From the IMG/VR virus record IMGVR_UViG_3300021255_000032: a stretch of DNA of 51,814 bases. One strand, given 5' to 3'. The position numbers and the translations under genes were made by a program. The notes beneath the pieces were generated by a model. The model did no database searches. It was not told the DNA's origin and saw only the letters and a list, made by a program, of their open reading frames with translations. Source of the stretch: a virus. This document shows, one piece after another, positions 12,221 to 51,814 of this stretch; the first letter of the stretch is position 1; every line of letters begins with the position of its first letter.

Positions 12221-13210
12221 ATGGAAAGTTTCATCATTGACAAAGACAGAAAAGCAGTAGAGCACGTTTCCGGCGGCAAAATGACGCTGATTTATGACAA
12301 CGCGGGTAACCCGTCTGTCATGTGTGTGATTCCGAAATTCCGCATGGAAGATGTTGACGCGAACCTTGGAACGGGCGTACACCCGGCTTTCCTGGTGCAC
12401 GGAAAAGAAGTGCCGGAAATTTTTATCTCGAAGTATCAGAACGTTATCGCAAACGGCAGAGCCTACTCGCTTGCGCATGAAGACCCGAAAGCCTACATCA
12501 CTTTTGACCAGTCGAAAGCAGCTTGCGACGCAAAAGGCCGGGGCTGGCACATTATGACTCGCGCAGAGTGGGCAGCTATTGCTTTGTGGTGCAAAGCTAA
12601 CGGCTTTATGCCTCGCGGCAACACGGCCTCCGGCAGAGCTTATGACGCCCTGCATGAATGCGGCGTTATGGGCGGCGACGCTCGCACCCTCACGGGCAGC
12701 GGTCCCGTGACGTGGAACCACGACAACACCCCGTACGGCATTAGCGACATGTGCGGTAACATCTGGGAATGGAACGACGGCATGAAGATTATTGATGGCC
12801 ATATCTACATTCACGGCGAAGATGGTGTAGCCATGAACAATTTCGACACCGCGAACATTGAAAACAATGTCAGCGGCTGGGTAAATACAAACGCTTTCTA
12901 CATGGGCGACGGTATGAAGATTGGCGCAGCTCGTGCCAACGCAAAGGGCTATGACGGCAACTTCAAAGACCTTGTAGCCAACAGCGGCTTTACGATTCCG
13001 AACACTCTTAAGCAGCTCGCGCTCGCTCCTACTACGGGCAACACGACTGACGACCATTTCTGGTGCAACACCGAAGGTGAGCGTATCCCGTTCTCGGGTG
13101 GCAATTGGAACCGCGGCTCGACTGCGGGCTTGTTCGTTTTGTCTTTGGACTACGTTCGTTCGCACTCGCACGGCGACATCGGTTTCCGCTCCGCTTATAT
13201 TGCGATTTGA
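12221..13210 (+). CDS. DGR target (variable) protein, FGE-sulfatase / C-type-lectin-fold receptor-binding candidate
   Basis: 329 aa. The VR occupies the last about 43 codons. FGE/CLec-like motifs are present (GWHIMTRAEWAAIALWC, CGNIWEWNDG, GGNWNxG...GFRSA). It is the last gene of the tail fibre module. Confidence 0.9.
   Translation: MESFIIDKDRKAVEHVSGGKMTLIYDNAGNPSVMCVIPKFRMEDVDANLGTGVHPAFLVHGKEVPEIFISKYQNVIANGRAYSLAHEDPKAYITFDQSKAACDAKGRGWHIMTRAEWAAIALWCKANGFMPRGNTASGRAYDALHECGVMGGDARTLTGSGPVTWNHDNTPYGISDMCGNIWEWNDGMKIIDGHIYIHGEDGVAMNNFDTANIENNVSGWVNTNAFYMGDGMKIGAARANAKGYDGNFKDLVANSGFTIPNTLKQLALAPTTGNTTDDHFWCNTEGERIPFSGGNWNRGSTAGLFVLSLDYVRSHSHGDIGFRSAYIAI
13082..13196 (+). repeat. DGR variable repeat (VR)
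   Basis: A 115-nt match to TR (offset 580 nt) with 12 mismatches, each at a TR adenine. It ends in the GC-rich GGTTTCCGCTCCGCTT (IMH-like). Confidence 0.95.
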
Positions 13211-13232
13211 CCCTTGATACTTGTGTTTTGCA

Positions 13233-13254
13233 GGGACGGGCGATAGCCCGTCCC
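13233..13254 (+). other. Hairpin downstream of VR (DGR retrohoming hairpin/cruciform candidate, possibly also a terminator)
   Basis: GGGACGGGC-GATA-GCCCGTCCC: a 9-bp GC-rich stem with a 4-nt loop, 22 nt after the target gene stop. The position matches the VR-proximal hairpin described for the Bordetella phage DGR. Confidence 0.6.
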
Positions 13255-13283
13255 CAGCTTTATAAATAAAACATTTTGAAAGG

Positions 13284-13628
13284 TTGAGAACAACGAACAA
13301 ACTAACCATAATTACAAAAACGAATGATTTACTAGACGAAATTTACGACGCAATAGCACAATATCCGAAGTCGGAAAAATTCGCATTGGGAGCAGACACC
13401 AAACAGACCGGATTAAACTTTTATAGGTTAATCATTACGGCGGCGAAGAAGTATTATAAGAAAACGACATTGAGGGACGCTGATGTAGAATTATTTGTAT
13501 TAAAGAATTTTATCCGTATGGGACATAACCGCAGATACATGAACACAAAACGCTACGAACGATTATCGCGGGCAATCGAAGAAGTAGGCAGAATGTTAGG
13601 CGGTTGGATTCAAACAACGGAAAAATAA
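13284..13628 (+). CDS. avd: DGR accessory variability determinant (Avd-like four-helix-bundle protein)
   Basis: 114 aa, basic, lying between VR and TR. Avd / 23S-rRNA-IVS-family style motif DEIYDAIAQYPKSEKFALGADTKQ. The start codon is uncertain (TTG 13284). Confidence 0.8.
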   Translation: MRTTNKLTIITKTNDLLDEIYDAIAQYPKSEKFALGADTKQTGLNFYRLIITAAKKYYKKTTLRDADVELFVLKNFIRMGHNRRYMNTKRYERLSRAIEEVGRMLGGWIQTTEK

Positions 13629-13661
13629 AAAATAAAAATATTATTGGGGAATAGCTATTTA

Positions 13662-13776
13662 CGTATCCCGTTATCGGGTGGCAATTGGAACAACGGCTCG
13701 AATGCGGGCTTGTTCGATTTGAATTTGAACAACGTTCGTTCGAACTCGAACGGCAACATCGGTTTCCGCTCCGCTT
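13662..13776 (+). repeat. DGR template repeat (TR)
   Basis: Non-coding copy of VR. In the VR frame it reads IPLSGGNWNNGSNAGLFDLNLNNVRSNSNGNIGFRSA with 10 AAY codons. By my count it has 24 adenines, 12 of them substituted in VR. Confidence 0.95.
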
Positions 13777-13979
13777 TACTTCACTCGTCAGAAGTTATAA
13801 CCTCATGGGGTTATATCCAGTACAGAAGTATTAAAGGAGTTATTCTCCATTATTGCAGGGGAAATATACTGCAATAAAAAAATAAAAACGGAACGATACA
13901 GTTAGTAGCTGACCGCGAAAAATGTATCGTTGTTTATGGTAGACAATATTTTAGTAACCCTAAAGGAAGTATTAAACAC
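13777..13979 (+). ncRNA. DGR RNA spacer between TR and RT (structured)
   Basis: No credible ORF. Two hairpins: 13796-13815 (7 bp) and AACGATACA/TGTATCGTT at 13892-13900 / 13923-13931 (9 bp). By analogy, the TR-RT spacer of characterised DGRs is part of the priming RNA. Confidence 0.5.
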
Positions 13980-15044
13980 ATGAAACGGATAAACCATATT
14001 TACAGTAAAATCTATGACTTTGAGAATTTATACGCGGCTTATATGGAAGCGCGGAAAGCGAAAAGGTATAGGCACGATGTTATGAGGTTCACAGCGAACC
14101 TCGAAGAAAATCTCATAGAGCTTCAAAACGAACTCATTTACAAGACTTACAAAGTAGGTCGGTACAATGAGTTTTTTGTTTATGACCCTAAGAAACGACT
14201 TATCATGTCCCTGCCTTTTCGGGACAGAGTTGTGCAATGGGCGATTTACCGCCAGATTAACCCGCTTTTCGATAAGCGATATATTTCAACCTCGTATGGT
14301 TGCAGAGTTGGCGGCGGCGCGCATAGAGCCGTGAAGAAGTTGAAGGAATACATCAGGGCGCAGCCGGGGACAGCTTACGTCCTAAAGATGGATATTAGCA
14401 AATATTTTTATCGCATAAACCATGATGTGCTGATGGGAACGCTTAGAGGCATGATAAAAGACGAAGATTTATTATGGCTTTTGGAAACCATTATACGCGG
14501 CGAACATGATTTTGGGATTGAGGTAGACGATTGGGATTATACAGGGCGACGGCTTTCTAATGTCGGTATGCCGATTGGAAATTTATCCTCACAGATGTTT
14601 GCTAATCTTTATCTTAATGCGGCAGACCATTTTGCCAAAGAAGTATTGAGATGTAAATATTATATCCGTTACATGGACGATATGGTTATCGTCGATACCG
14701 ATAAGAAACGATTGCGGGAAGTGTTGCGGGAAATGGACAGCTTTCTTGTCAATAAATTGGCGTTGAAGCTGAATAATAAAACCTGTATACGGACGGCAAC
14801 ACAGGGCGTTGACTTTTGCGGGTACAGAGTTTGGGGGACTCATATCCGTCTACGTAAAAAATCAGCGATAAAAATGAAACATAGGCTAAAACATCTGCAA
14901 AAAGAATTTTCCAAAGGGAGAATTAAAACGGACACGTTCAGAAATAGCCTAATGAGCTATATGGGAATGTTGGAGCATTGCGACTCCTATTCCTTAAAGA
15001 ACAAGATTTTTGATTCTATTGTTTTGACAAAAGGAGGAAGATAA
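13980..15044 (+). CDS. DGR reverse transcriptase
   Basis: 354 aa. Has the DGR-type motif PIGNLSSQMFANLYL and the catalytic YIRYMDDMVIV (YMDD). Immediately downstream of TR. Confidence 0.95.
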   Translation: MKRINHIYSKIYDFENLYAAYMEARKAKRYRHDVMRFTANLEENLIELQNELIYKTYKVGRYNEFFVYDPKKRLIMSLPFRDRVVQWAIYRQINPLFDKRYISTSYGCRVGGGAHRAVKKLKEYIRAQPGTAYVLKMDISKYFYRINHDVLMGTLRGMIKDEDLLWLLETIIRGEHDFGIEVDDWDYTGRRLSNVGMPIGNLSSQMFANLYLNAADHFAKEVLRCKYYIRYMDDMVIVDTDKKRLREVLREMDSFLVNKLALKLNNKTCIRTATQGVDFCGYRVWGTHIRLRKKSAIKMKHRLKHLQKEFSKGRIKTDTFRNSLMSYMGMLEHCDSYSLKNKIFDSIVLTKGGR

Positions 15045-19723: not shown

Positions 19724-19939
19724 ATGACAGCAGAAAAAGAGCCGGAAAAGAAACGGGGAAGGGGGCGTCCGAGAGTCGCACCAGAGGACAGCAAAGCCCG
19801 CCCTCCCCACATGATAAAGGCGTTTGACAATGAGTTCGCATTGGTTAAGCGGTTCAACCGCTTGACCCGGACTCACCCGGAGGAATGCGAGAAGATTTTG
19901 GAGGCATTGGAGAACTGGAAAGGAGGGCGGCAGGAATGA
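19724..19939 (+). CDS. Hypothetical protein with an AT-hook-like basic N-terminus
   Basis: MTAEKEPEKKRGRGRPRVAPE... ATG 19724 follows GAAGGGGG. Confidence 0.5.
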   Translation: MTAEKEPEKKRGRGRPRVAPEDSKARPPHMIKAFDNEFALVKRFNRLTRTHPEECEKILEALENWKGGRQE

Positions 19940-20157
19940 GTTTTCAAGACAATCAAGGACTGAAAAAACCGAAACGTAGTTGCCCCTTTTGCGGCGGCCA
20001 TGATATTGAGATTTACGAGCATTACGGGACAGCGGTAGGGATTGACTACGGCGGCTTTTTCCCGGAGTGTACCGAATGCGGTTGCAGGTTGACCTATTAC
20101 CATAGCAGGGAAGCCGCCATAGACGCATGGGACAGGAGGTGGGGTGAAGATGAATGA
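19936..20157 (+). CDS. Lar-family restriction-alleviation-like protein (copy 1)
   Basis: CPFCGGHDIEI...CTECGC...REAAIDAWDRRW: a Zn-ribbon plus the (E/D)A...AWN/DRR ending typical of Lar-family proteins. ATGA overlap with the upstream gene. Confidence 0.6.
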   Translation: MSFQDNQGLKKPKRSCPFCGGHDIEIYEHYGTAVGIDYGGFFPECTECGCRLTYYHSREAAIDAWDRRWGEDE

Positions 20158-20353
20158 AAACAAGCCTTGCCCCTTTTGCGGGGCGACCATGACGAAGATT
20201 ATGAAGAAGGGCAGCAAGCGACCAAACACGCATACAATTTACATGATGTGCAAGAAGTGTCACAGCCGCGGTCCTACCTCATTTTTCGAGGAAGGGAGCA
20301 GCCCGGAGGAAGAAGAACGAGCCGCAAGAGACACATGGAATAACAGGCCGTGA
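20144..20353 (+). CDS. Lar-family restriction-alleviation-like protein (copy 2)
   Basis: KPCPFCGATM...CKKCHSRG...ERAARDTWNNRP. Overlaps copy 1. Confidence 0.6.
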   Translation: MKMNENKPCPFCGATMTKIMKKGSKRPNTHTIYMMCKKCHSRGPTSFFEEGSSPEEEERAARDTWNNRP

Positions 20354-20460: not shown

Positions 20461-21957
20461 TTACTTGAAAACGAAGTCGAAGTCGAGCAGGTACTTATGG
20501 CCATAGTTATAATCGCGCCGGATTACAGAAACCTTTTCGAGGATTTCAAGCACGACCCTACGCCTAGCCTCTAACGTTGGCGGGCAATTGCGAACCACCG
20601 CGACAATATCAGCCGGGGCATTTTGTTCTGCAGGGGCGGCAGATGTTTTCTCCGACTCGGCCAACTCATTCTGCAGCCGGGATTCCTCTGCCTTCAAGGC
20701 GGTCAGCTTTTCCGTAGCCTCGGACTGGCCTAGAAGAGATTGAGAAAACCACGCCATGACGGCTTGCCTTTCTGAATGGATCTTCTCTATTCGCTTGAGT
20801 ATCTTCTGCCGCTTGTTTTGGGCAGGGGCGGCAGATGTTTTTCCGTCAGCACGTTTTCCGATGTAGGCCGTCAAGGTTTCTTCATTGGTGCAGATTTGTT
20901 CCAGAGTTGACCAAAAGAGAGCGTCAGCGACAGGCAGCTCCATATAGCGGGAAGGGCATTTGCCGCCGTTACGCGGGGCAGATTCAGGACATTGATACCA
21001 TCGACGACCGCGCTTCCCGTCTGTGCAGATTCTTATGCGCGTACCACAATGACCGCAATAAGCAAGCCCCTGCAGCAGCCCTATGTCATTGTTTTTCTTC
21101 CATGTTTTGTAGGTACGTTTTTTAGATTTGATTTCGAGGGCTTTTTCATGTAGTTCAGCCGGGATAATTGCGGGGCAGGTCATTTCTATCCATTCTTCAC
21201 GCGGGCGGGGGATTTTCTTGTAGGATTTCGGTCCCGTCTTTTTGTGGTACTTTGTGTTGGCAAAGTAGCGACCTGTATAGTGGGGGCGGTGGATTATGTT
21301 ACGCACCGAACTGGCGCACCACTTCACGCCTGTGGGGGAGGGTATGCCCTGTTTGTTGAGCATATCGGCAATGACTTCACAGCCGCCGACCCTGTCCTCC
21401 ACGTACCATTGGTACACGCGCTTGACGATTTCAGCCTCGGCAGGATTCACGACATAGCAGCAGGTTTCCCGGTCGAAGTCGTAGCCATAGATGTGACTGT
21501 CATTTATTGCCTTCCCGGCGCGAAGTTTGGCACGCTTCCCGCGCATTGTTCGCTCCCTTATTTTGGCGCGTTCGTATTCAGCAAATACGCCTTTCATCTG
21601 ATAGGACATATTGCCCTCAGGGGTATTGTCGAACCGTTCGAGCACGAACACGGGACGGCAGCCAGCTTTCTCCAATTCCTCTGTCAAGATAAGCTGATGT
21701 ATCAATTTCCGCGCCATACGGTCAGCGTCGTGGAAAATTACAGCCTCGTACAGGCCGTCTTGGACAGCGTCGCGCAGATTGTCCAGGGCAGGACGTTCGA
21801 GGAAGCCGCCGGAATAGCCATCGTCGATGTATTCTTTCACGACAAAAGCACCCATCTCAGCAGCCTTTTTCCGGCAAGCCTCTATTTGCGTACCGATGGA
21901 ATAGCCGTGCTCGGCTTGCCATTCCGTAGATACGCGGGCATATATAGCAACGTTCAT
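20461..21957 (-). CDS. int: Large serine recombinase (integrase)
   Basis: Resolvase-type N-terminus MNVAIYARVSTEWQAEHGYSIGTQ, a recombinase domain, a Zn-ribbon (CGHCGTRI...C) and a C-terminal coiled coil. ATG 21957 is preferred over the track start 22059. Confidence 0.9.
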   Translation of the reverse strand: MNVAIYARVSTEWQAEHGYSIGTQIEACRKKAAEMGAFVVKEYIDDGYSGGFLERPALDNLRDAVQDGLYEAVIFHDADRMARKLIHQLILTEELEKAGCRPVFVLERFDNTPEGNMSYQMKGVFAEYERAKIRERTMRGKRAKLRAGKAINDSHIYGYDFDRETCCYVVNPAEAEIVKRVYQWYVEDRVGGCEVIADMLNKQGIPSPTGVKWCASSVRNIIHRPHYTGRYFANTKYHKKTGPKSYKKIPRPREEWIEMTCPAIIPAELHEKALEIKSKKRTYKTWKKNNDIGLLQGLAYCGHCGTRIRICTDGKRGRRWYQCPESAPRNGGKCPSRYMELPVADALFWSTLEQICTNEETLTAYIGKRADGKTSAAPAQNKRQKILKRIEKIHSERQAVMAWFSQSLLGQSEATEKLTALKAEESRLQNELAESEKTSAAPAEQNAPADIVAVVRNCPPTLEARRRVVLEILEKVSVIRRDYNYGHKYLLDFDFVFK

Positions 21958-22089
21958 GTGGTCAAAATTTCCCCTTTCATTTATGCAAAAAAATATTCCA
22001 TTGTTTGGATTGAAATTATTCCATTGCGCACAATGTAAAAACGCAAGGCGAAAAGTCAAGCAAACTGCAAAAATCGAAGAAAAGTAAAG

Positions 22090-27253: not shown

Positions 27254-27961
27254 ATGCTTAAGATAGCAGTACACGCAAGTGGATCTAGCGGGAACTGCTA
27301 CACGGTGACGAACGGGAACGCCACGGTCATCATGCTTGACTGTGGTTTACCCTATCGCCGTATTCAGCAGTTGACAGGATTCCAACACCCGGACGCAGTT
27401 TTTGTCACGCACGAACACAACGACCATATCAAAGCCGCGAAGGACTTTATGAAAAAAGGCGTTGATGTTTATATGAGCCGGGGAACGATGGAGGCGGCAG
27501 GACTTGAAAAAAGTCACCGCTTGAACATCTTGAAAAATCGTCAATCGGTTTCGATTGAAGGAATTGTCGTCAGCGCATTTGACACACAGCATGACGCGGT
27601 TGAGCCTTTAGGATTTTTGATTGACGATGGAGACGACAGAATACTATACGCCACAGATACATATTATCTGCATTACAAATTTCCGGGACTGACAAAAATT
27701 ATGATTGAGGCGAATTATTCAGAGCCTATTCTGGAGGAAAATGTTTATCGCGGCAGCGTTCCCGAAAAGCTAAGAAAAAGACTGAGGCAAAGCCATTTTT
27801 CCTTGGAGAATTTGAAAGGATTTTTCAAAGAAAACGACCTGTCCAAAGTCAAGGAAATATGGCTGATTCATTTATCGAATGGAAACGCCGACCCTGTGAG
27901 ATTTAGAAACGAGATTGAAACTTTGACCGGGCGGCCTGTTTATGTGGCGGGCATTGATTAG
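27254..27961 (+). CDS. Metallo-beta-lactamase-fold hydrolase (putative recombination nuclease)
   Basis: HxHxDH motif (THEHNDH). Directly follows recT. Confidence 0.8.
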   Translation: MLKIAVHASGSSGNCYTVTNGNATVIMLDCGLPYRRIQQLTGFQHPDAVFVTHEHNDHIKAAKDFMKKGVDVYMSRGTMEAAGLEKSHRLNILKNRQSVSIEGIVVSAFDTQHDAVEPLGFLIDDGDDRILYATDTYYLHYKFPGLTKIMIEANYSEPILEENVYRGSVPEKLRKRLRQSHFSLENLKGFFKENDLSKVKEIWLIHLSNGNADPVRFRNEIETLTGRPVYVAGID

Positions 27962-34288: not shown

Positions 34289-34873
34289 ATGCTTTTGCAC
34301 TACTATCTGGAAAAGGAGTATAATAGTTCTCATGGAAATAACCTTACATCACCAGCAAAGGAGCGAGCGCAATTGAGAGAGTATAGCGATTTTATCGAAG
34401 CAACACGCGGATACTTAAAGCGATACAACCAATTCCAGGTTACTATCGCGAACCTTAATGACGACATTGAAGCAATGGAACACGCCATCGAATTAGAAAT
34501 TGCGGCTCCTATTTCTAAATACGGCGGGCAGCCGGGCGGGGGAGGTTCAGAATTGACACCTACCGAGCAGGGCGCGTCGAGGATTTCAAAGGCGCAGGAC
34601 TTCATCAGGAAGAACAAGGAGAGCATACGGAACATTGAGCGCATTTTGCGCAAGGTTGACCGTGCTATTGCGCAGTTGAAACCAGACGACCAATGGCTCA
34701 TAAGAGGGCATTTTATCGACCATCGAAGCTGGGGAGAGCTGAGTGCTGAAAAGTTTTTTACTGAGAAATGGGCGCGGGAACGTTCAAGGAAAGCCATCAA
34801 GAAAATGGCATTTATGATATTTGGCAATAGGGCATTGCCGGAACAACAAAATTTATTCATCTTCTACGAATGA
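34289..34873 (+). CDS. Late-gene transcriptional activator (ArpU/RinA / sigma-70 region-4-like)
   Basis: C-terminal HTH-like DQWLIRGHFIDHRSWGELSAEKFFTEKWARERSRKAIKKMAF. It is the last gene before the late operon. The track start ATG 34289 lies in the tail of a hairpin; TTG 34373 after AAAGGAG is a plausible alternative start. Confidence 0.55.
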   Translation: MLLHYYLEKEYNSSHGNNLTSPAKERAQLREYSDFIEATRGYLKRYNQFQVTIANLNDDIEAMEHAIELEIAAPISKYGGQPGGGGSELTPTEQGASRISKAQDFIRKNKESIRNIERILRKVDRAIAQLKPDDQWLIRGHFIDHRSWGELSAEKFFTEKWARERSRKAIKKMAFMIFGNRALPEQQNLFIFYE

Positions 34874-34875
34874 GA

Positions 34876-34900
34876 ACGGGGGCGGAAGCCCCTGTTTTTT
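34876..34900 (+). terminator. Rho-independent terminator
   Basis: ACGGGGGC-GGAA-GCCCCTGT followed by a T6 run. Confidence 0.7.
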
Positions 34901-35039: not shown

Positions 35040-35114
35040 GGTATCATCGAAAAATGAAGGACACGGGGCGCGGGTGAAACATTCGCGGCCTTTTCTATTG
35101 GAGGGCAGGCACTG

Positions 35115-36053
35115 ATGGAAAATAACTGGCCATACAAGCCGAATATAATTCAAATAGAAACCGTGCAGGGGTGCAATCGGCGTTGCACTTTTTGTGGAAC
35201 GATGGGCATGAAAAGAGAATTTCATTTTGCCGAAAGAAAAACCATTATTCACGCTTGCAAGTTGATAAAGAAAGCAAAACTGAATAGTCGGATTTTGTTG
35301 GCTTGCCACGGCGAGCCAACGCTACACCCTCATATAGTAGGTATTGTTAAGGATATACGAAGAATATTGCCAAATAACATGATTCACCTGTTTACGAACG
35401 GTACTATTATCGAGAAAAAGGAATTATTAGTACCGGCACTTTTTGAGGCCGGATTAAATGACCTTATTTTTGATGAATATAGCGACCATCGTGTAGGTGA
35501 GTTTGTTAGGAAGAGCCATGTATGCAATATGTTTGATATTGTAGAGCAAGGAGCAGGCGTACCGTTATTTGCAAGCAAGAAATTAAACGAGCAAAGGATT
35601 TGCATTGTCCCTCCGATTGACGGTGAAGGGAATACTATAAGCAGAAAAATAATAAACCATTGCGGGGCAGGAGGTAAAGGATTGGACAAGCCTAGTAGCA
35701 AAAAGTGCTCCGTTATTTTCAGAGATTTCATGGTGCGATGGGACGGGAATGTTGCAATTTGTTGCAATGATTTTCGCGGCGAATATTTTGTAACGAATAT
35801 CATGCAACACAATGACCTGAAAGACGTTTATTTCCACCCGCGACTCGAAAGCGCAAGAAAATATTTAATGCTAGGACAAAGAAAGGACATTCACCCTTGC
35901 GATATTTGCAATACTACGCCAATACGGGTAGGGCTTTTGCCAGATAGTGCGGGGAAACTTACACTCAAGAAGCCTAACGAAATTGATAGAACTATTGTCA
36001 GCAAGGTTTATAAGCCGTTGGCAAGCATTGAAAAGAGGGCGTGGGAAAAATGA
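35115..36053 (+). CDS. Radical SAM enzyme with a SPASM/twitch-like Cys-rich C-terminus
   Basis: CxxxCxxC: VQGCNRRCTFCG. C-terminal Cys cluster CSVIFRDFMVRWDGNVAICCNDF...HPCDICN. GGAGGG RBS. Confidence 0.85.
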   Translation: MENNWPYKPNIIQIETVQGCNRRCTFCGTMGMKREFHFAERKTIIHACKLIKKAKLNSRILLACHGEPTLHPHIVGIVKDIRRILPNNMIHLFTNGTIIEKKELLVPALFEAGLNDLIFDEYSDHRVGEFVRKSHVCNMFDIVEQGAGVPLFASKKLNEQRICIVPPIDGEGNTISRKIINHCGAGGKGLDKPSSKKCSVIFRDFMVRWDGNVAICCNDFRGEYFVTNIMQHNDLKDVYFHPRLESARKYLMLGQRKDIHPCDICNTTPIRVGLLPDSAGKLTLKKPNEIDRTIVSKVYKPLASIEKRAWEK

Positions 36054-36955
36054 GAGCCGCTATAATCGAATGTTTTCAGAATAGCGAAGGCGCAAAACAA
36101 GGTACTTCTATTTTGGCGCACATCAAAAACGGAAAAATCATTGCTCATTATTTAGGGATTCCCTATTTTATCAGCCCGGCAGATTTGGGATATGCAGCAG
36201 TACAAAAGTTTGACACTTTGATTTTTACTGCAAGCAGCAGATTTGCAGAGCACGAGCACATAAAGCGAATAATCGCGAATAACAAAGACGCGCGGTTTAT
36301 TTACATATCCAACGATTATAATACTACCCCTCATTCAGAATTGAATAAGTACGGGTTTGAAACGATTTGCGCCTATGAAACAGGTGAGCGCGATACTTAC
36401 TTTTTGAACCTTAATGCACTTATGGCAAAAAAGCCGCTGAAACAGATTCCAAAGAAGTATGATTGCCTTTATTGGGGAAGTTTCAGAGAGGGCAGGGAAA
36501 AGGATTTTAAGAGGTATTTGCATAGCGGCGTTTATTTGAGCACGATGAACAAGTCGCAAAAGTATTTTACGGCGGCAGGTTGTACGCCAAATTTTGTGCA
36601 GAAAATCGACTGGAATAAAAGCATTGCAAGCCTTTTCAGATATTCGCTTTATATCGAGGATGAAGAAACACACTCAAATTTTTGTAACCTTGCCAACAGA
36701 TGGTATGAGGCAGGGACTTACAATATGGTGACTTTCTTTGATAAAAAGTGCAGGCGCACGATTGAGCGGTCGGAGATTGCAAAAGTATACGACGACTTCT
36801 ACACCGTGGACAGCTACGAAACGCTGATGAAAAGAGTTTTGGAGTGCAACAAGGATTTCCAAAAACATCTTAAGCAGCAGCAGGAATGGCACAAGTTGGA
36901 TTTTGTTGCGAAAGAAAAGACCTTGGAACAGATAAGACAGATAGTTATGCGATAG
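36041..36955 (+). CDS. Hypothetical protein, possibly glycosyltransferase-like
   Basis: 304 aa. The YWGSFREGREKDFKRYL and LANRWYEAGTYNMVTFFD segments faintly resemble GT-B C-terminal motifs. This is a weak call. Confidence 0.5.
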   Translation: MGKMRAAIIECFQNSEGAKQGTSILAHIKNGKIIAHYLGIPYFISPADLGYAAVQKFDTLIFTASSRFAEHEHIKRIIANNKDARFIYISNDYNTTPHSELNKYGFETICAYETGERDTYFLNLNALMAKKPLKQIPKKYDCLYWGSFREGREKDFKRYLHSGVYLSTMNKSQKYFTAAGCTPNFVQKIDWNKSIASLFRYSLYIEDEETHSNFCNLANRWYEAGTYNMVTFFDKKCRRTIERSEIAKVYDDFYTVDSYETLMKRVLECNKDFQKHLKQQQEWHKLDFVAKEKTLEQIRQIVMR

Positions 36956-36976
36956 GATTTAGGAGGCAGGGCAGAA

Positions 36977-37627
36977 ATGGAAACAAAGAAATTTAGGCTG
37001 ATTGACATTAATCCGGCACCGTACAACCCGCGAAAGGATTTACAGCCGGGGGACGCACAATATGAGGCCATCAAAAACAGCATAGAACGGTTTGGATTTG
37101 TTGAACCGCTTATCGTCAATGTACGGGACGGCGGCAACGTTCTCGTAGGCGGTCACCAGCGGTACAAGATTTTACTGGCGCAGGGCGTACAGGAGGTTGA
37201 GGCCGTTGTGGTCGATCTATCGGAAAACGAAGAAAAAGCCCTTAATGTCGGCTTGAATAAAATCGAGGGCGAATGGGATTACGGGAAATTGAAAGACCTT
37301 GTCGCAGAGCTTGACCGGGACGACGTAACCTCCATTGGTTTCAGTAAAGAGGAAGTGGACAGCCTTCTGCAGGAATTAGAGCAGGAAAGCGGCGACGAAG
37401 ATGTAGCTGACGACCCCGGAGAGGTCCGAGACGGGACGGACGACGAAGAAGGGGACGACGACACCGGGGAGAGTGAAAACACCGCTGAGAGGCCGTTTGA
37501 GGTTTATTTGAGCTTTCCGACACAGGAAGCGGCTGAAAGTTGGCTGGAGGCGCACGGCATAGATAAGGCTTTTGACAGTTCAAGAAATGTCATTCTCGAC
37601 TTTACGAAGGAGGCGCAGGAAGCGTGA
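36977..37627 (+). CDS. ParB/Srx-like N-terminal-domain protein (copy 1)
   Basis: PYNPRKDL...VGGHQRY...NVGLNKIEGEWD, then an acidic linker and a small C-terminal domain. Confidence 0.8.
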   Translation: METKKFRLIDINPAPYNPRKDLQPGDAQYEAIKNSIERFGFVEPLIVNVRDGGNVLVGGHQRYKILLAQGVQEVEAVVVDLSENEEKALNVGLNKIEGEWDYGKLKDLVAELDRDDVTSIGFSKEEVDSLLQELEQESGDEDVADDPGEVRDGTDDEEGDDDTGESENTAERPFEVYLSFPTQEAAESWLEAHGIDKAFDSSRNVILDFTKEAQEA

Positions 37628-38226
37628 GACTGGAAGAAAAGAACATAAGCGAGCTGAACGCAGCGAAGTATAACCCGCGCGTCACCTTAGAGCCGGGGAT
37701 GGAGGAATTTGAAAAGCTCCGGCGCAGTATTGAGCATTTTGGAGATGTTGAACCCATCGTATGGAACGAGCGCACCGGGAACGTGGTAGGCGGCCATCAG
37801 CGGCTGCAGGTTATGAAGTTCTTAGGCCGCGATACGGCAAAGGTTTCAGTCGTGGATATGCCAGAGGAAGAAGAAAAGCTCCTTAACATTGCCTTGAACA
37901 AGGCCAAAGGCGAATGGGATAACGCAAAGCTGGAAAGCCTTCTGCGGGACATTGACACCGAAACTCTTGATTTTACAGGTTTTGGAGCTGATGAAGTAGC
38001 GATTTTACTTGCAAGCAACGACGGGATAGATGATTCCGACCTCGAAGAAGATACCCCAGACGACTGGCAGGACGGAATAGAGTTCTACGGCGCGTCTTTT
38101 GTTGTTACGCTGAGATTTGCAGGAATAAACGAGGCGCGGGAATGGATAGCCAAAGAAGGATTGGATTTGGCATTGCAGGAAAACAGTCACACAAGCGTAT
38201 ACCGTTTTGGGGAGGGCGAAGTATGA
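37624..38226 (+). CDS. ParB/Srx-like N-terminal-domain protein (copy 2, tandem paralog)
   Basis: KYNPRVTL...VGGHQRL...NIALNKAKGEWD. GTG start overlapping the upstream stop. Confidence 0.8.
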   Translation: MRLEEKNISELNAAKYNPRVTLEPGMEEFEKLRRSIEHFGDVEPIVWNERTGNVVGGHQRLQVMKFLGRDTAKVSVVDMPEEEEKLLNIALNKAKGEWDNAKLESLLRDIDTETLDFTGFGADEVAILLASNDGIDDSDLEEDTPDDWQDGIEFYGASFVVTLRFAGINEAREWIAKEGLDLALQENSHTSVYRFGEGEV

Positions 38227-39524
38227 GTGAGAATAAAAAGCCGGAATTAAAACAGAATTATCCTTCCCCGCGTTGGAGCATGGAAATTCCAGATTGCTCC
38301 ATGCCTATGACGTTCGACACTTATAGCAAGTGCGCATACAATTGCCTGTACTGTTTTGCTTTCTTCCAGAAAAGCCATACGCTGAAAGGCTATAACAGCA
38401 AAAAGAACGCGGGCAAGATTGAGATACGCAGCGTAGACCCTAAGAAGGTTATTGACCTGTTTGAGAAAGCCTTTGCCCACGACGAAAGCGCAAGCGCAGT
38501 ACAAAAGCAATTCTTCCCCTATATCCAGGCAAGGAAGATTATGCAGTGGGGCGGCCTTGCAGACGAATTTGACGAATGGGAACGGCGGTACGGCGTGACC
38601 TTGGAACTTCTCAAGTATTTCGACAAGATAGATTATCCCTTGTCTTTCAGCACCAAAGCGGCGTGGTGGACGCAGGACGAACGGTACATGAGCCTTTTCC
38701 GCAAGCACAAGCACAACTGGCACGTCAAGATTTCGATTATCACGGCTGACGACCACAAAGCAAAACAGATGGAGAAGGGCGTCCCCAGCTCCACGGCGCG
38801 GCTCAGAGCTATTCAGAATTTAGCTAAAGCCGGGATTCATGTCACTTTGAGATTGCGGCCTTTCATTATTGGCGTAAGCAACGACTGGAAGGAGCTTATC
38901 AGCAAAGCCGCTGCGGCTGGCGCGGATTCTGTGACTACGGAATTTTTCTGCATGGAGAGCAGGGCAGACAATGAGCTGAAAGCCCGGTATGCAGCTATGA
39001 GCAAAATTTGTGGATTTGACATTCACAAATTCTATATGAGCAACAGTAAGCAGAACGGGTACAAGCGGCTGAACCGCAGCATTAAAGCACCGATTATCCG
39101 TGAAATGCGGGATTTTGCGCATAAGCTCGGCTTGAGATTTCATGTCAGCGACGCTTTCTGCAGAGAGTGTAACGACGCTTGCAATTGTTGCGGCGTCCCC
39201 CCCGAATGGAACGTGAGCCAGACGGGGCAAATCGGACAGGCTATCATCATCGCCCGGACGAAGGGCGAAGTCAGATTTTCGGATATCAAGCCCCATATAT
39301 ACCAATTTTTCAACGGTTTCAGATGGGCAAGTGCGCAGGAGTACAACACCGGGAGTAACAAAGCCCGCGCCTTGAAATACGATATGACGATGGCAGAGTT
39401 TTTGCGGAACAACTGGAACAATGTCAACGGGGCGACTTCACCCGCAAAGGGTTACGGCGGCATTTTGAAGCCCTGCGGCGTTGATGAAAATGGAGATGTT
39501 ATATACAAGTACAATGGGAAATAA
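38223..39524 (+). CDS. Radical SAM enzyme (SplB / DNA-repair-photolyase-like style of cluster motif)
   Basis: CxxxCxxC: YSKCAYNCLYCFAF. 433 aa from ATG 38223, with an ATGA overlap with ParB copy 2. Confidence 0.85.
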   Translation: MSENKKPELKQNYPSPRWSMEIPDCSMPMTFDTYSKCAYNCLYCFAFFQKSHTLKGYNSKKNAGKIEIRSVDPKKVIDLFEKAFAHDESASAVQKQFFPYIQARKIMQWGGLADEFDEWERRYGVTLELLKYFDKIDYPLSFSTKAAWWTQDERYMSLFRKHKHNWHVKISIITADDHKAKQMEKGVPSSTARLRAIQNLAKAGIHVTLRLRPFIIGVSNDWKELISKAAAAGADSVTTEFFCMESRADNELKARYAAMSKICGFDIHKFYMSNSKQNGYKRLNRSIKAPIIREMRDFAHKLGLRFHVSDAFCRECNDACNCCGVPPEWNVSQTGQIGQAIIIARTKGEVRFSDIKPHIYQFFNGFRWASAQEYNTGSNKARALKYDMTMAEFLRNNWNNVNGATSPAKGYGGILKPCGVDENGDVIYKYNGK

Positions 39525-39551: not shown

Positions 39552-40055
39552 ATGAGGAAAGCCAAAATAGAGCCGTGGGAACGGCAGCCGGGAGAGTCGG
39601 AAAAGGCGTACGAGGCTTTTCTGATTTTCAAAAATCAAGGTCCAGGGCGAACGTTCAAAGAAGTTGCACAAAAGTTGCACAAAAGTTACACCCTGATACG
39701 GCGTTGGAAAGAGCAATTTGAATGGGAAAGCAGGGCGGCAGATTACGACCGCGAGAACGAACGGAAAGAGCAGATAGCCACCCAGCAAGCCCGTAAAAAG
39801 ATGATTGAACGCCATATCAAGATAGGCACATCTTTACAGGGCAAAGCCTTACAGGCGTTGGAGACTATTAAACCCGGCGAAATGAAGCCACAGGACATAG
39901 AGAGATTCTTGCAGTTCGGGACAAAGTTAGAGAGTGAGAACCGGGCAAAGCAGGAGGCAAAGCAAGCAGGGCAAGGCCAAAGCGCGGCGGCTATGCTTGC
40001 AGCAGTTTTAGAAAAGGCATGGGGGAGCGATACGGACGATGGCGGCGAACATTGA
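39552..40055 (+). CDS. terS: Terminase small subunit
   Basis: 167 aa with an N-terminal HTH-like WERQPGESEKAYEAFLIFKNQGPGRTFKEVAQKL. Overlaps the TerL start. Confidence 0.7.
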   Translation: MRKAKIEPWERQPGESEKAYEAFLIFKNQGPGRTFKEVAQKLHKSYTLIRRWKEQFEWESRAADYDRENERKEQIATQQARKKMIERHIKIGTSLQGKALQALETIKPGEMKPQDIERFLQFGTKLESENRAKQEAKQAGQGQSAAAMLAAVLEKAWGSDTDDGGEH

Positions 40056-41442
40056 AGAACTGGCGCAGCAGATGAAAAGATATATAACTGACCCGGCGGC
40101 GTTTGTTGTCAATGTTCTTGACGCTCACCCGGACAAGTGGCAGGAGGAAGCCTTGCAGGCTATTGGCACAAAGCCGCGTATTTCTGTACGCTCCGGCCAC
40201 GGCGTAGGCAAGACGGCTTTTGAAGCGTGGTGCGTCTCTTGGTTTCTGTTTACGCGGCCTTTTCCAAAGATTCCCTGCACAGCACCGACTCAACAGCAGC
40301 TTTTCGACATTCTATGGCCGGAAATTTCAAAGTGGCTTAAGCGGTCACCGTTGCTTGACGAACTTTTTGAGTGGCAAAAGACCAAAGTCGTGATGAAGGA
40401 AATGCCCGAAAGATGGTTTGCAACCGCGAGGACAGCGAGCAAGCCGGAAAATATGGCAGGTTTCCACGAAGAACATCTTTTATTCATTTGTGACGAGGCC
40501 AGCGGCATAGACGATAGTATCTATGAAACCATCGAAGGCGCGTTGACCACCACGGACGCGAAGCTGATTCTTTGCGGCAACCCCACGAAAAACAGCGGCA
40601 TTTTCAAGCGGTCGTTTTTCGAGGATAGGGAGCTGTACTGGACAAAGAAGGTTTCCTGCTTTGAAGCAGCACGGGTAGCAGACGAATATAGCCAACGACT
40701 CATAAAGCAGTACGGCATGGATTCCGATGTTGTCCGGGTGCGTGTTTTGGGGGAATTTCCGAAAGCAGAGCCGGACGGCCTTATACCGCTTGAACTGGTT
40801 GAGGCGGCTATGATGAGGGACGCAGATATGGAAGCAGACCCGGAAACAATGCTCGAAGTCGGCGCGGATATAGCGCGATTTGGCGACGACGAAACAATTA
40901 TCGTCCCCCGGATAGGCGGCAAGGTTCTTGGCCTTCACCACTTCACGAAGCAAGACCTCATGACTACCTGCGGCAAGGTGTTGAGCATTACCAAAGGAGC
41001 TATGAAGGATTACGCAAAGCCACACGCCACGATACGCGTTGATGATGATGGTGTTGGCGGCGGCGTTACAGACCGTTTGCGGGAGGTTATTCTCGAAGAT
41101 GGGCTGAACATTGATGTTATTGCTTGCCACAACGGCGGCAGGGCAAACGACAAGGAGCATTATGCAAATTGGGTAACAGAGCAGTGGTGCGGCCTTAAAG
41201 AGCGACTTGCGGACGGGGATATTTCCCTGCCACAGGACGATGAACTCGCGGCGCAGCTATCTACGCGCAAGTATTCCATCAACAGCCGTGACCAGATTAT
41301 TTTAGAGGACAAGAAAAGCTATAAGAAAAGGATTCACAGGTCGCCTGACCGGGCTGACGCCTTAGTGCTCGCTTTTGCGAACGGGGGCGAAACAGACCCC
41401 GGACTAGCGGCGTTATTGGGAGGGGCAAAGCTATATGGCTAA
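40039..41442 (+). CDS. terL: Terminase large subunit
   Basis: Walker A SGHGVGKT, Walker B LLFICDEASG, and a C-terminal nuclease region. Confidence 0.9.
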   Translation: MAANIEELAQQMKRYITDPAAFVVNVLDAHPDKWQEEALQAIGTKPRISVRSGHGVGKTAFEAWCVSWFLFTRPFPKIPCTAPTQQQLFDILWPEISKWLKRSPLLDELFEWQKTKVVMKEMPERWFATARTASKPENMAGFHEEHLLFICDEASGIDDSIYETIEGALTTTDAKLILCGNPTKNSGIFKRSFFEDRELYWTKKVSCFEAARVADEYSQRLIKQYGMDSDVVRVRVLGEFPKAEPDGLIPLELVEAAMMRDADMEADPETMLEVGADIARFGDDETIIVPRIGGKVLGLHHFTKQDLMTTCGKVLSITKGAMKDYAKPHATIRVDDDGVGGGVTDRLREVILEDGLNIDVIACHNGGRANDKEHYANWVTEQWCGLKERLADGDISLPQDDELAAQLSTRKYSINSRDQIILEDKKSYKKRIHRSPDRADALVLAFANGGETDPGLAALLGGAKLYG

Positions 41443-50352: not shown

Positions 50353-51814
50353 ATGGCAGGTGGCGAATGGGAGATTACAGACCTCCCCAAATTACCCGGA
50401 TTGTACATGAACTTCAAGGCGGCGGCATTGGCAACAGTCTCCACGGGCGACCGTGGGACGGTAGTTGTGCCGTATAAAGCGCATTGGGGCAAGGTAGGAG
50501 GCTTTACGGAGCTGTACAGGGAAACCGATATTTTGACCGTTTTCGGCAGTATCGAGGATACCAACGGCAGCACCTTCTACAAAACGCTTAGAATGTGTTG
50601 CCTTGGCAGCCCGAAAAAGATTCTCGGATACCGTCTTGCTTCCAGCGCAGCGGCAAAAGCCGCGCTGACGTTGAAGGACGGGGAGAATGCGGATAAGGTT
50701 ACTCTTTCCGCGAAGTACGAAGGCGAACGCGGGAACGCTTTCAAGGCAACTCTCGCAGCAAGCCTCACAGACGAAGGCGTTTATACGCTGAAACTCTACG
50801 AGAACACCACCCTTTTGAAAACGTATGAGTTCACGACCTGGCAGGGGCTTGTGGACGCAGTCAACGCTGATAACTCTTATGTAACGGCGGCAAAAGCGGC
50901 GGCAGACACCGACCTTAGCGGGAATACGTTCAAGATTGTTTCCTCGGCGGCCTTCACGGGCGGTAATTCCGGCATTACAGGAGTTACGGCGGCTGACTAT
51001 CTGGCCATGCTGAATGTGTTGGAGCAGGAAACCTTTAATATTCTGACCTTGGACGGCGTGACTGACCCCAGTATTCAGACTACCGTTGCAACGTGGGTTA
51101 AGAATATGCGTAAGAACGGCAAAAAGATTGTGGCCTTTATGGGCGGCAGCAAAGAGGACGATACCTGCGATGAAGCCGTTTCGCGCACGATTTCCCGCTC
51201 GGCAGGTTTCAACCACGAAGGCATTATCAACGTGGGCGTAGGCGTTGTTCTCGACGATGTTTCCTACTCCTCGGCAGAAGTCGCGCCCTATGCGGCCGGA
51301 TTGATGGCAGGGCAGAAAATGACCGAAAGCACCACCTACGCGGCAACGCCTTTCGACGATGTTACCCGCCGTTGGAAGGGCGGCAGAAGTTCGGAGCAGG
51401 AAAAGGCCGTGACTAATGGTGTATTCCTGTTTGTCTTTGATGGTCGTATCGTCAAGGTTCTGCAGGGCATTAACAGCCTTATCACCTTGCGGCAAGACCA
51501 GAATAACGCCTTCAAGAAAATCCGTAGCATTCGCACTATGGACGCTATCGACAGCGATATGCAGCAGACCGCCGAAGATAACTACATCGGCAAGATTAAC
51601 AACACCGAAGAAGGGCGACAGGCTTTAATCGGTGCTTGCAAGCAGTACATGGAGGTTTGCGCACAGGGCGGCATTATCGAAAAGGGTACGTATGATGTGT
51701 ATTGCGACCCCACCTACCACGGGGCGAACGCAACCATCAAGCCGGAGCCTGACCAGGTATTCCTCAAGTGGGAAGCTCAGGTTACAGATGTTGTCGAGAA
51801 GATTTTCTCGAATT
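50353..51814 (+). CDS. Tail sheath protein (XkdK-like), runs off the window end and continues at nt 1-121
   Basis: ATG 50353 after AAGGAGGA. I translated the frame by hand and it is open to the window end. Typical sheath segments include NILTLDGV, AFMGG and NGVFLFVFDGRIVKVLQGINSL. The ORF is absent from the ORF track, which shows only the antisense shadow ORF 50392..51495. Confidence 0.9.
   Translation, partial: MAGGEWEITDLPKLPGLYMNFKAAALATVSTGDRGTVVVPYKAHWGKVGGFTELYRETDILTVFGSIEDTNGSTFYKTLRMCCLGSPKKILGYRLASSAAAKAALTLKDGENADKVTLSAKYEGERGNAFKATLAASLTDEGVYTLKLYENTTLLKTYEFTTWQGLVDAVNADNSYVTAAKAAADTDLSGNTFKIVSSAAFTGGNSGITGVTAADYLAMLNVLEQETFNILTLDGVTDPSIQTTVATWVKNMRKNGKKIVAFMGGSKEDDTCDEAVSRTISRSAGFNHEGIINVGVGVVLDDVSYSSAEVAPYAAGLMAGQKMTESTTYAATPFDDVTRRWKGGRSSEQEKAVTNGVFLFVFDGRIVKVLQGINSLITLRQDQNNAFKKIRSIRTMDAIDSDMQQTAEDNYIGKINNTEEGRQALIGACKQYMEVCAQGGIIEKGTYDVYCDPTYHGANATIKPEPDQVFLKWEAQVTDVVEKIFSN
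51708..51814. repeat. Second copy of the 107-nt terminal repeat
   Basis: Identical to nt 1-107. Confidence 0.95.

Follow-up and report, generated by a model that had tools for sequence, protein, structure and literature searches.

A ParB and radical SAM gene core beside the terminase genes of a phage genome: a probable DNA-hypermodification cluster with a candidate oxygen-independent initiating enzyme

The IMG/VR virus record IMGVR_UViG_3300021255_000032, a stretch of 51,814 nucleotides that was analysed at its full length and is called the window here, carries five genes on its + strand (35115-39524) just upstream of the terminase genes. They encode a first radical S-adenosylmethionine (SAM) enzyme (rSAM1), a protein resembling the beta-glucosyltransferase (BGT) of phage T4, two ParB-like proteins (ParB1 and ParB2), and a second radical SAM enzyme (rSAM2) with a fold like that of spore photoproduct lyase (SPL). 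The locus is very probably a DNA-hypermodification cluster built on a core of ParB and rSAM2. A DNA-modification module had been proposed in the initial annotation, and the proposal gains strong support from comparison: the BGT-like fold, the homology of rSAM2 to gp53 of Pseudomonas phage M6, and the hypermodification enzymes that fill the equivalent slots in relatives all point the same way. On balance, we favor rSAM2 as the initiating enzyme, which would make the chemical handle for post-replicative hypermodification in the phages of anaerobes. More tentatively, rSAM2 might found a family of O2-independent radical-SAM thymine (5-methylpyrimidine) C5-methyl oxidases that are activated by ParB, an anaerobic counterpart of TET/JBP that would start hidden glycosyl- and aminoacyl-thymidine hypermodifications in phages that infect gut and rumen anaerobes.

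Scanning IMG/VR with rSAM2 returned 230 relatives. Neighboring genes were annotated with hidden Markov model (HMM) profiles built from neighbor clusters, for 151 sources consisting of the window, 80 IMG/VR loci and 70 GTDB loci. The related loci cover only +/-8 kb, and percentages refer to the 98 loci whose sequence extends 4 kb or more 5′ of rSAM2. Of these, 97% have ParB and 13% have rSAM1. In tblastn searches with the window proteins, the arrangement ParB1-ParB2-rSAM2-TerS (TerS being the terminase small subunit) is kept in most rSAM2 relatives, rSAM1 is found in a subset, and the 301-amino-acid (aa) gene for the BGT-like protein is almost absent. Two ParB paralogs are usual in Firmicutes-type loci, in most of which TerS lies 3′ of rSAM2. 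After de-replication at 90% rSAM2 identity, 63 lineages remain; ParB occurs in 60/63, and a kinase or glycosyltransferase (GT) in 59/63. By this comparison the five genes are two modules, a conserved three-gene core (ParB1, ParB2, rSAM2) and a swappable two-gene cassette. The initial annotation had described a single five-gene island. Its open reading frames (ORFs) are all real, but they do not form one unit.

The genes that vary around the core are, as far as profile matches can identify them, the enzymes that typify the thymidine hypermodification and DNA glycosylation pathways of phages. Variable slots in the relatives hold TET-associated glycosyltransferases (TAGT, PF20691; phrog_842), P-loop kinases, amino-acid:DNA transferases (ADDT/AADT, PF18724, at 1e-20) and GNAT proteins. 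Further neighbors include a glutamine amidotransferase (GATase), SAM synthetase, a cytidylyltransferase with an APH-type kinase, and another GT-B enzyme. A kinase is found in 55% of the 98 loci and a DNA glycosyltransferase (TAGT or BGT-like) in 40%; one or the other is found in 95%, and the two together in 0%. AADT, GNAT and SAM synthetase follow at 38%, 32% and 22% respectively. Three of the 63 lineages hold both kinase-type and GT-type loci, and modules have therefore been swapped. The kinase HMM built from the relatives matches M6 gp54, a proven 5-hydroxymethyldeoxyuridine (5-hmdU) DNA kinase (PMC8989533), at 7e-11.

Domain fusions link the core to these decorating enzymes. A kinase is fused ahead of rSAM2 in one locus (KinA, L008) and behind it in another (KinB, L150). 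TAGT precedes rSAM2 in three proteins (P0363, P0364, P0379) and follows it in three others (P0375, P0381, P0384), and a single protein (P0383) reads kinase::rSAM2::TAGT. rSAM2 is also fused to an FkbM methyltransferase (P0377). In the particular case of P0307, it is rSAM1 that is fused to TAGT, within the gene order ParB, ParB, UDP-glucose dehydrogenase, a 245-aa gene, rSAM1::TAGT and rSAM2. A glycosyltransferase family that takes its name from an association with TET is here joined to radical SAM enzymes.

In the window, the slot that TAGT holds in relatives is occupied by the BGT-like gene (36050-36955, + strand), a putative DNA base glycosyltransferase of the GT-B fold with two Rossmann domains. 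The gene had been listed as 36041-36955 and described as a 304-aa protein with faint glycosyltransferase motifs. A 100%-identical database protein of 301 aa (P0121) places the start at ATG 36050, which corrects the length, and structure prediction bears out the glycosyltransferase. The AlphaFold2 (AF2) model has a pLDDT of 92, and its top Foldseek matches are T4 BGT structures (1nzd/1j39/1qkj; E 3e-11 to 6e-11, TM-score 0.70-0.72), with other GT-B enzymes at E 1e-4 or worse. Identity to T4 BGT is 14-17% in the structural alignment, and similarity is not detectable at the sequence level; no match was found in Pfam, PHROGs, NCBIfam or PADLOC. Its family, for which the protein database was the only source of homologs (at least 210), has invariant D, E and R residues; no match came from scanning IMG/VR by pattern with the 301-aa protein. 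The likeness to T4 BGT and TAGT glycosyltransferases (10.1101/2023.12.21.572611; PMC8256090) thus lies in the BGT fold here and in the TAGT in the same slot of relatives. The difference is that the BGT-like protein has neither a phage thymine dioxygenase (5mYOX) nor a ThyS partner.

These observations bear on whether any base is modified at all. In one alternative, the ParB proteins would be packaging nucleases or partition factors, and the radical SAM and glycosyltransferase genes would be morons acting on a peptide, a metabolite or a surface glycan in lysogenic conversion. Such a reading would fit with ParB-like nuclease-domain proteins commonly adjoining terminases, with SPASM radical SAM enzymes often maturing peptides (as in the NCBIfam matches), with GT-B enzymes commonly acting on glycans, and with the AT-rich, recently acquired character of the rSAM1 and GT pair. 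We consider it very improbable. T4 BGT is the best structural match of the glycosyltransferase by seven orders of magnitude, and the equivalent slots in relatives carry TAGT, homologs of the 5-hmdU DNA kinase, and AADT. Both rSAM2 and rSAM1 occur fused to TAGT, the nearest relatives of the ParB N-domain are fused to DNA methyltransferases, and neither a precursor-peptide gene nor membrane GT features were seen.

The core enzyme rSAM2 (38223-39524, + strand; 433 aa) carries the motif CAYNCLYC. The CX3CX2C cysteines (C37/C41/C44) do not vary among 16 sequences that reach down to 47% identity, nor in a closer set of 33, and C25, C243, C322 and C323 are likewise invariant across the 16. The AF2 model (pLDDT 83) adopts a partial TIM-barrel radical SAM fold, as the top 16 PDB matches in Foldseek are all radical SAM enzymes. 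SPL provides the top six of them (best E 2e-6, TM-score 0.45-0.55). The resemblance to SplB suggested initially from the cluster motif therefore stands for the fold and not for the family: the SPL models TIGR04070 and PF20903 score 16.5 bits (cut-off 400) and 15 bits (cut-off 27), so that the likeness is at fold level only. The models NF033668 (73 bits, cut-off 360) and NF038135 (52 bits, cut-off 430), of the PA0069/Rv2578c, COG1533 group, align with the N-terminal 240 residues only. A search of PDB sequences with rSAM2 gave no match, which leaves the fold search alone as informative. SplB, the best fold match, is a radical SAM enzyme of thymine-methyl chemistry within DNA. In contrast to SplB, rSAM2 is phage-encoded, comes from light-free habitats, and has an extra C-terminal region of 190 residues in which invariant cysteines are found. 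A role as a DNA-repair SPL homolog was rejected as implausible, given the rumen or otherwise light-free habitat and scores far from the SPL cut-offs.

At 50%-identity representatives, the rSAM2 family comprises 168 clusters at E<=1e-30 and 560 at E<=1e-10. A tblastn search with rSAM2 against 50,697 GenBank phages gave one weak partial match, did not recover M6, and identified no cultured-phage relative. The best structural match in BFVD (A0A7S5RCB4, E 6e-11) is a nameless protein and not interpretable. Many rSAM2 homologs appear, as judged by eye, to contain one or two intein-like insertions of about 300-400 aa each (seen in P0367, P0385, P0389, P0395, P0399, P0421, P0443, P0451, P0459 and P0481). 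Several of these insertions sit within or just after CX3CX2C, which may be compared with the ‘intein-containing Rv2578c family’ model that rSAM2 weakly matches.

rSAM2 also has distant homology to M6 gp53, which extends over about 260-300 residues at 20-23% identity (BLASTP 2e-7; hhalign E 3e-5, probability 73%). An SPL-like isomerase of N-alpha-glycinylthymine in DNA, gp53 was presented by its authors as the first known case of a DNA modification installed by a radical SAM enzyme (Lee et al. 2021, PMC8989533). Both proteins are SPL-like, and both are found in clusters with a homolog of the 5-hmdU DNA kinase. However, 5-hmdU is made in M6 before replication by a ThyA-like hydroxymethylase, while no ThyA-like gene was found in the window genome or the rSAM2 loci. 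gp53 is an optional tailoring step tied to AADT and a pyridoxal-phosphate (PLP) decarboxylase; the window has neither, and AADT is limited to 38% of rSAM2 loci. Unlike gp53, rSAM2 is an invariant core that is also found in GT-only clusters.

One could suppose that the cluster does hypermodify DNA and that rSAM2, like gp53, is a late tailoring enzyme, with the handle supplied by an unrecognised phage protein or a host function. The precedent is direct, since gp53 isomerises N-alpha-glycinylthymine after the kinase and AADT have acted, and many window genes carry no annotation. We nonetheless judge this arrangement unlikely. rSAM2 is constant across GT-only, kinase-only and kinase + AADT + GNAT branches, for which a common tailoring substrate is hard to imagine. 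A ThyA-like enzyme is absent from the complete genome and from all loci, whereas M6 keeps its ThyA-like hydroxymethylase beside its cluster. The pairing of ParB with rSAM2 also mirrors the pairing of ParB with initiating dioxygenases.

ParB1 (36977-37627, + strand; 216 aa) matches PF02195 ParB_N at 32.7 bits, above the cut-off, and phrog_620 over its full length (E 2.5e-45); in the PDB it matches the Spo0J N-domain. ParB2 (37624-38226, + strand; 200 aa) scores 20 bits for ParB_N and matches phrog_620/498 at E 1e-39. The two are paralogs with 37% identity over their full length (E 3e-35), and both consist of ParB_N (CTPase fold, residues 5-87), an acidic linker and a conserved C-terminal stretch of about 45 aa common to both. 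No helix-turn-helix, methyltransferase or other Pfam domain was found in either, in agreement with the initial annotation of tandem paralogs that lack a methyltransferase domain. In many cultured Firmicutes phages, DNA methyltransferases carry a fused ParB domain, to which the ParB1 N-domain is 42-58% identical. ParB proteins of this type evidently accompany DNA-modifying catalysts. Among PADLOC models, the sole match of ParB1 and ParB2 is the ParB domain of a type II methyltransferase. When the five-gene island was compared with the 50,697 GenBank phages by blastn, only a 59-nt ParB match was found.

Among described systems, the pathway of the ParB-dependent phage thymine dioxygenases comes nearest (PMC13229309). 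The 5mYOX enzymes need a ParB-like activator with a nucleotide-binding N-domain, a linker and a C-domain, and with no DNA-binding domain (O'Toole et al. 2026, PMC13229309). ParB-dependent 5mYOX clusters contain P-loop kinases, AADTs, GATases, GTs and terminases, and radical enzymes are not mentioned in that paper (PMC13229309). The likeness is extensive: a short ParB beside a base-acting enzyme, the same decorating enzymes, adjacency to the terminase and a post-replicative logic. In the loci described here, an SPL-like radical SAM enzyme replaces the Fe(II)/2-oxoglutarate dioxygenase, two ParBs are usual (in the Firmicutes type), and the hosts are almost all obligately anaerobic. The functional pairing of ParB with rSAM2 is a predicted one.

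The remaining question is where the handle comes from. Characterised 5-hmdU kinases, AADTs, TAGTs and BGT act on or downstream of 5-hydroxymethylpyrimidine in DNA (PMC8989533; 10.1101/2023.12.21.572611). In the complete window genome, no ThyA-like, TET/JBP or C5-methyltransferase gene was found with precomputed Pfam matches for all genes and PHROGs for the unannotated early genes. When E. coli ThyA served as phmmer query, the M6 dUMP hydroxymethylase, which lies 1.5 kb from the M6 cluster, was detected as a positive control (5e-9), and neither the window nor any of about 155 loci gave a match. To our knowledge, 5-hydroxymethylpyrimidines in DNA arise by only two routes, from ThyA-like enzymes acting on the nucleotide pool or from O2-dependent TET/JBP enzymes acting on the polymer. 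O2-dependent dioxygenases cannot work in obligate anaerobes. By elimination, rSAM2 with ParB is the best handle-making candidate, because it is the sole enzyme common to all branches and no other initiator was found.

The hosts are consistent with such an assignment. A GTDB scan located rSAM2 in 70 loci, of which a prophage of Selenomonas ruminantium S137, at 95% identity and of the kinase type (L089), is the closest relative with a cultured host. Other hosts are Segatella copri (including a complete genome), Prevotella, Bacteroidales, Clostridia, Lachnospiraceae, Oscillospiraceae, Victivallales, Spirochaetaceae and Thermotogota. Two metagenome bins among the rSAM2-bearing genomes are labelled aerobe or facultative, and the remainder are obligate anaerobes.

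Initiation by rSAM2 need not imply a hydroxymethylated thymine. The enzyme could instead perform another chemistry or act on another base, such as radical adenosylation or alkylation of a base (the added group then serving the kinase or GT as substrate), a reaction on 5-methylcytosine, or formation of a non-hydroxymethyl handle. The radical SAM superfamily is diverse in its reactions, C5-methyltransferases, dCTP deaminase or ThyX occur in a minority of loci, an rSAM2::FkbM methyltransferase fusion exists, and the BGT-like and TAGT proteins have acceptor specificities that are predicted only. Set against these points, the kinases of relatives are homologs of a kinase specific for 5-hmdU, ADDT-family enzymes are known solely on phosphorylated 5-hmdU (PMC8989533), and the window has no C5-methyltransferase. 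The modeled SPL-like fold of rSAM2 likewise points to thymine-methyl radical chemistry. We hold this alternative to be distinctly unlikely.

Returning to thymine-methyl oxidation by rSAM2, a possible sequence of events can be outlined. As the leading genes of the late operon, the five would be transcribed shortly before the packaging genes, so that modification would be timed before packaging. ParB1 and ParB2 may load or activate rSAM2 on replicated double-stranded phage DNA. The 5′-deoxyadenosyl radical of rSAM2 would then take a hydrogen from the thymine C5-methyl group to leave an allylic thymine radical of the kind handled by SPL, and one-electron oxidation with capture of water would yield 5-hydroxymethyluracil or an equivalent handle. 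The BGT-like glycosyltransferase would add a sugar to the handle, after which rSAM1 could remodel the sugar or the nucleotide donor. In sister phages, the same core would feed the 5-hmdU-DNA-kinase homolog, then the amino-acid:DNA transferase, then GNAT. The modified DNA would be packaged and would resist host restriction.

Several points weigh against this scheme. We found no precedent for net thymine-methyl hydroxylation by an SPL-like radical SAM enzyme, and the sole characterised relative of rSAM2, M6 gp53, is a downstream isomerase and no initiator. rSAM2 falls far under the curated NCBIfam cut-offs of all named radical SAM families, and scores 23 bits for Pfam PF04055 Radical_SAM, below the gathering score of 29.5; most close homologs do have a precomputed PF04055 match, and the fusion relatives reach 32-43 bits. 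The invariant C25, C243, C322 and C323 may form an auxiliary electron-accepting site, a role that is conjectural. Modified virion DNA is itself a prediction from gene comparison. The loci are mutually related, and their counts are of non-independent events. The exclusivity of kinase and GT is strong and not absolute, since L067 and P0383 have both. No TET/JBP was seen among the 25 most frequent of 89 Pfam families matched by 141 representatives of unassigned neighbor ORFs, an indirect test that would allow for a rare TET/JBP. Finally, a few loci carry a C5-methyltransferase, dCTP deaminase or dUTPase, and one carries ThyX, so that the target base may differ by lineage.

The initial annotation knew of no described system with this gene combination. 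For the radical SAM version the statement holds, as no description of a radical-SAM/ParB/GT DNA system was found in the literature searched, where most subscription journals were outside coverage. The likeness that it drew to DndB and DpdB proved not to be the best one. The Dnd/Dpd analogy was rejected, with no DndACDE or DpdA (TGT-like) partners of the five proteins in PADLOC, Pfam or NCBIfam, and PADLOC made no defence-system assignment for the five genes. We regard the cluster as a variant of known post-replicative DNA hypermodification pathways, in which the proposed activity of rSAM2, if real, would be a new kind of enzyme.

Were the proposed activity confirmed, it would provide the phages of strict anaerobes with a route to 5-hydroxymethylpyrimidine handles that ThyA-like or O2-dependent enzymes do not explain. 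Initiation by a radical SAM enzyme would add a new activity to the enzymology of DNA, and the role of ParB as an activator of base modifiers would extend beyond dioxygenases. Roughly 25,000 phage DNA GT contigs have been reported, of which ~65% have no 5mYOX or ThyS neighbor (10.1101/2023.12.21.572611); the rSAM2 family could explain part of this fraction without a known initiator. Gut and rumen viromes may additionally carry hypermodified DNA, with consequences for sequencing bias and restriction resistance. Cultured hosts open to testing are Selenomonas ruminantium S137 (rSAM2 95% identical) and Segatella copri HDE04 and H-2632.

The two genes ahead of the core have a different history. rSAM1 (35115-36053, + strand; 312 aa, motif CNRRCTFC) and the BGT-like gene have GC contents of 40.9% and 40.7%, compared with 49-52% for ParB1, ParB2, rSAM2, TerS and the terminase large subunit (TerL), and 49.9% for the genome. 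In L006, whose flanks are 97% identical, blastn shows window positions 35059-36958 replaced by 100 bp, and a 162-aa P-loop kinase lies instead between ParB2 and rSAM2. Because L006 is without the pair and has a kinase in its place, the AT-rich 1.9-kb insertion (35059-36958, + strand) is, by this comparison, a recently exchanged cassette. The AT-richness that the initial annotation had noted by eye (41% versus 50% GC) and the horizontal acquisition that it suggested are thereby borne out.

The assignment of rSAM1 as a radical SAM enzyme with a SPASM domain was likewise upheld, both PF04055 (44 bits, cut-off 29.5) and PF13186 SPASM (29.1 bits, cut-off 21.5) being passed. Named NCBIfam families are all far below cut-off, and weak viperin matches in PADLOC (1e-5) were regarded as generic radical SAM similarity. 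The best match among PDB sequences is BtrN (4m7t, 3e-8). rSAM1 shares with the BtrN-type SPASM/twitch sugar dehydrogenases the Radical_SAM and SPASM domains and a carbohydrate-handling partner; the match spans the N-terminal 110 residues only. A glycosyltransferase gene lies beside rSAM1 in 13/13 loci that have it. Peptide maturation by rSAM1 was considered and rejected, as there is no precursor gene, rSAM1 is always beside a GT, and P0307 joins it to TAGT in one protein. A homolog of rSAM1 with 39% identity (P0354), which recurs on many contigs, is encoded on the peat/wetland metagenome phage contigs L161-L163. There, ParB and rSAM2 genes were not detected within 7 kb on either side, and the rSAM1 family is therefore not restricted to the system.

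Other recurrent neighbors were also noted. A trio 5′ of ParB1, consisting of a 364-aa APH-type kinase protein, a cytidylyltransferase and one or two TAGTs, is found in L009-L011, L018, L035, L091-L095 and others, and suggests a CDP-activated donor or a second substituent on a DNA glycan. UDP-glucose dehydrogenase takes the place of the trio in L164. These sugar-supply neighbors (APH-type kinase, cytidylyltransferase, UDP-glucose dehydrogenase) match those reported around phage DNA GTs. In 12 related loci, a DUF5131 (phage Gp37/Gp68) protein with a Cys-rich, CxxxCxxC-like N-terminus is encoded a few kb 5′ of the cluster, for example at L103:1961-2854.

Within the window, the cluster follows a late-gene transcriptional regulator gene (34289-34873, + strand; phrog_36, E 2.5e-19), which is kept 5′ of ParB1 in the closest relatives. 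A terminator-like hairpin, GGGGC-GGAA-GCCCC followed by a T run, can be read 3′ of the regulator gene (34879-34900, + strand), and a terminator scan called the same stem on the opposite strand; the late-operon leader lies 3′ of this hairpin. A scan for sigma-70 promoters found 8 against 7.7 expected, which is the chance level. The last three genes of the cluster were already described as coupled, and they overlap at GTGA 37624-37627 (ParB1/ParB2) and ATGA 38223-38226 (ParB2/rSAM2). The first two are coupled as well, by ATGA 36050-36053 (rSAM1/BGT-like), which had gone unremarked. Downstream lie TerS (39552-40055, + strand; phrog_6299, E 1.8e-23) and TerL (40039-41442, + strand; phrog_2, phrog_5902), and then the portal gene.

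The window is a complete circular assembly of ~51.7 kb from a temperate phage with a contractile tail. It is complete and circular because a 107-nt direct repeat is identical at both termini (1-107 and 51708-51814) and the ends join within the tail-sheath gene. The sequence is also found in ENA and Logan metagenome assemblies, two of which are labelled bovine. A large serine recombinase (Resolvase/Recombinase/Zn_ribbon_recom; 20461-22059, - strand) adjoins a helix-turn-helix repressor-like gene, which indicates a temperate lifestyle.

Three further features of the genome deserve mention. The first is a diversity-generating retroelement (12221-15044) with a variable repeat at 13082-13196, a template repeat at 13662-13776 and a reverse transcriptase (RVT_1) at 13980-15044. 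Its 115-nt template repeat differs from the variable repeat solely at template adenines. The variable repeat lies at the 3′ end of an upstream tail-region gene (12221-13210) with a faint FGE-sulfatase/C-type-lectin match, and the region is likewise AT-rich, at about 41-42% GC. Secondly, two adjoining small genes with Lar restriction-alleviation domains (PF14354) are located at about 19936-20353 (coordinates converted from L087), and would represent a second, independent anti-restriction function in the same phage. Lastly, a metallo-beta-lactamase-fold protein with a faint match to the Anti-Pycsar protein Apyc1 is encoded at 27254-27961, in a recombination module beside RecT-like and SbcC-like genes.

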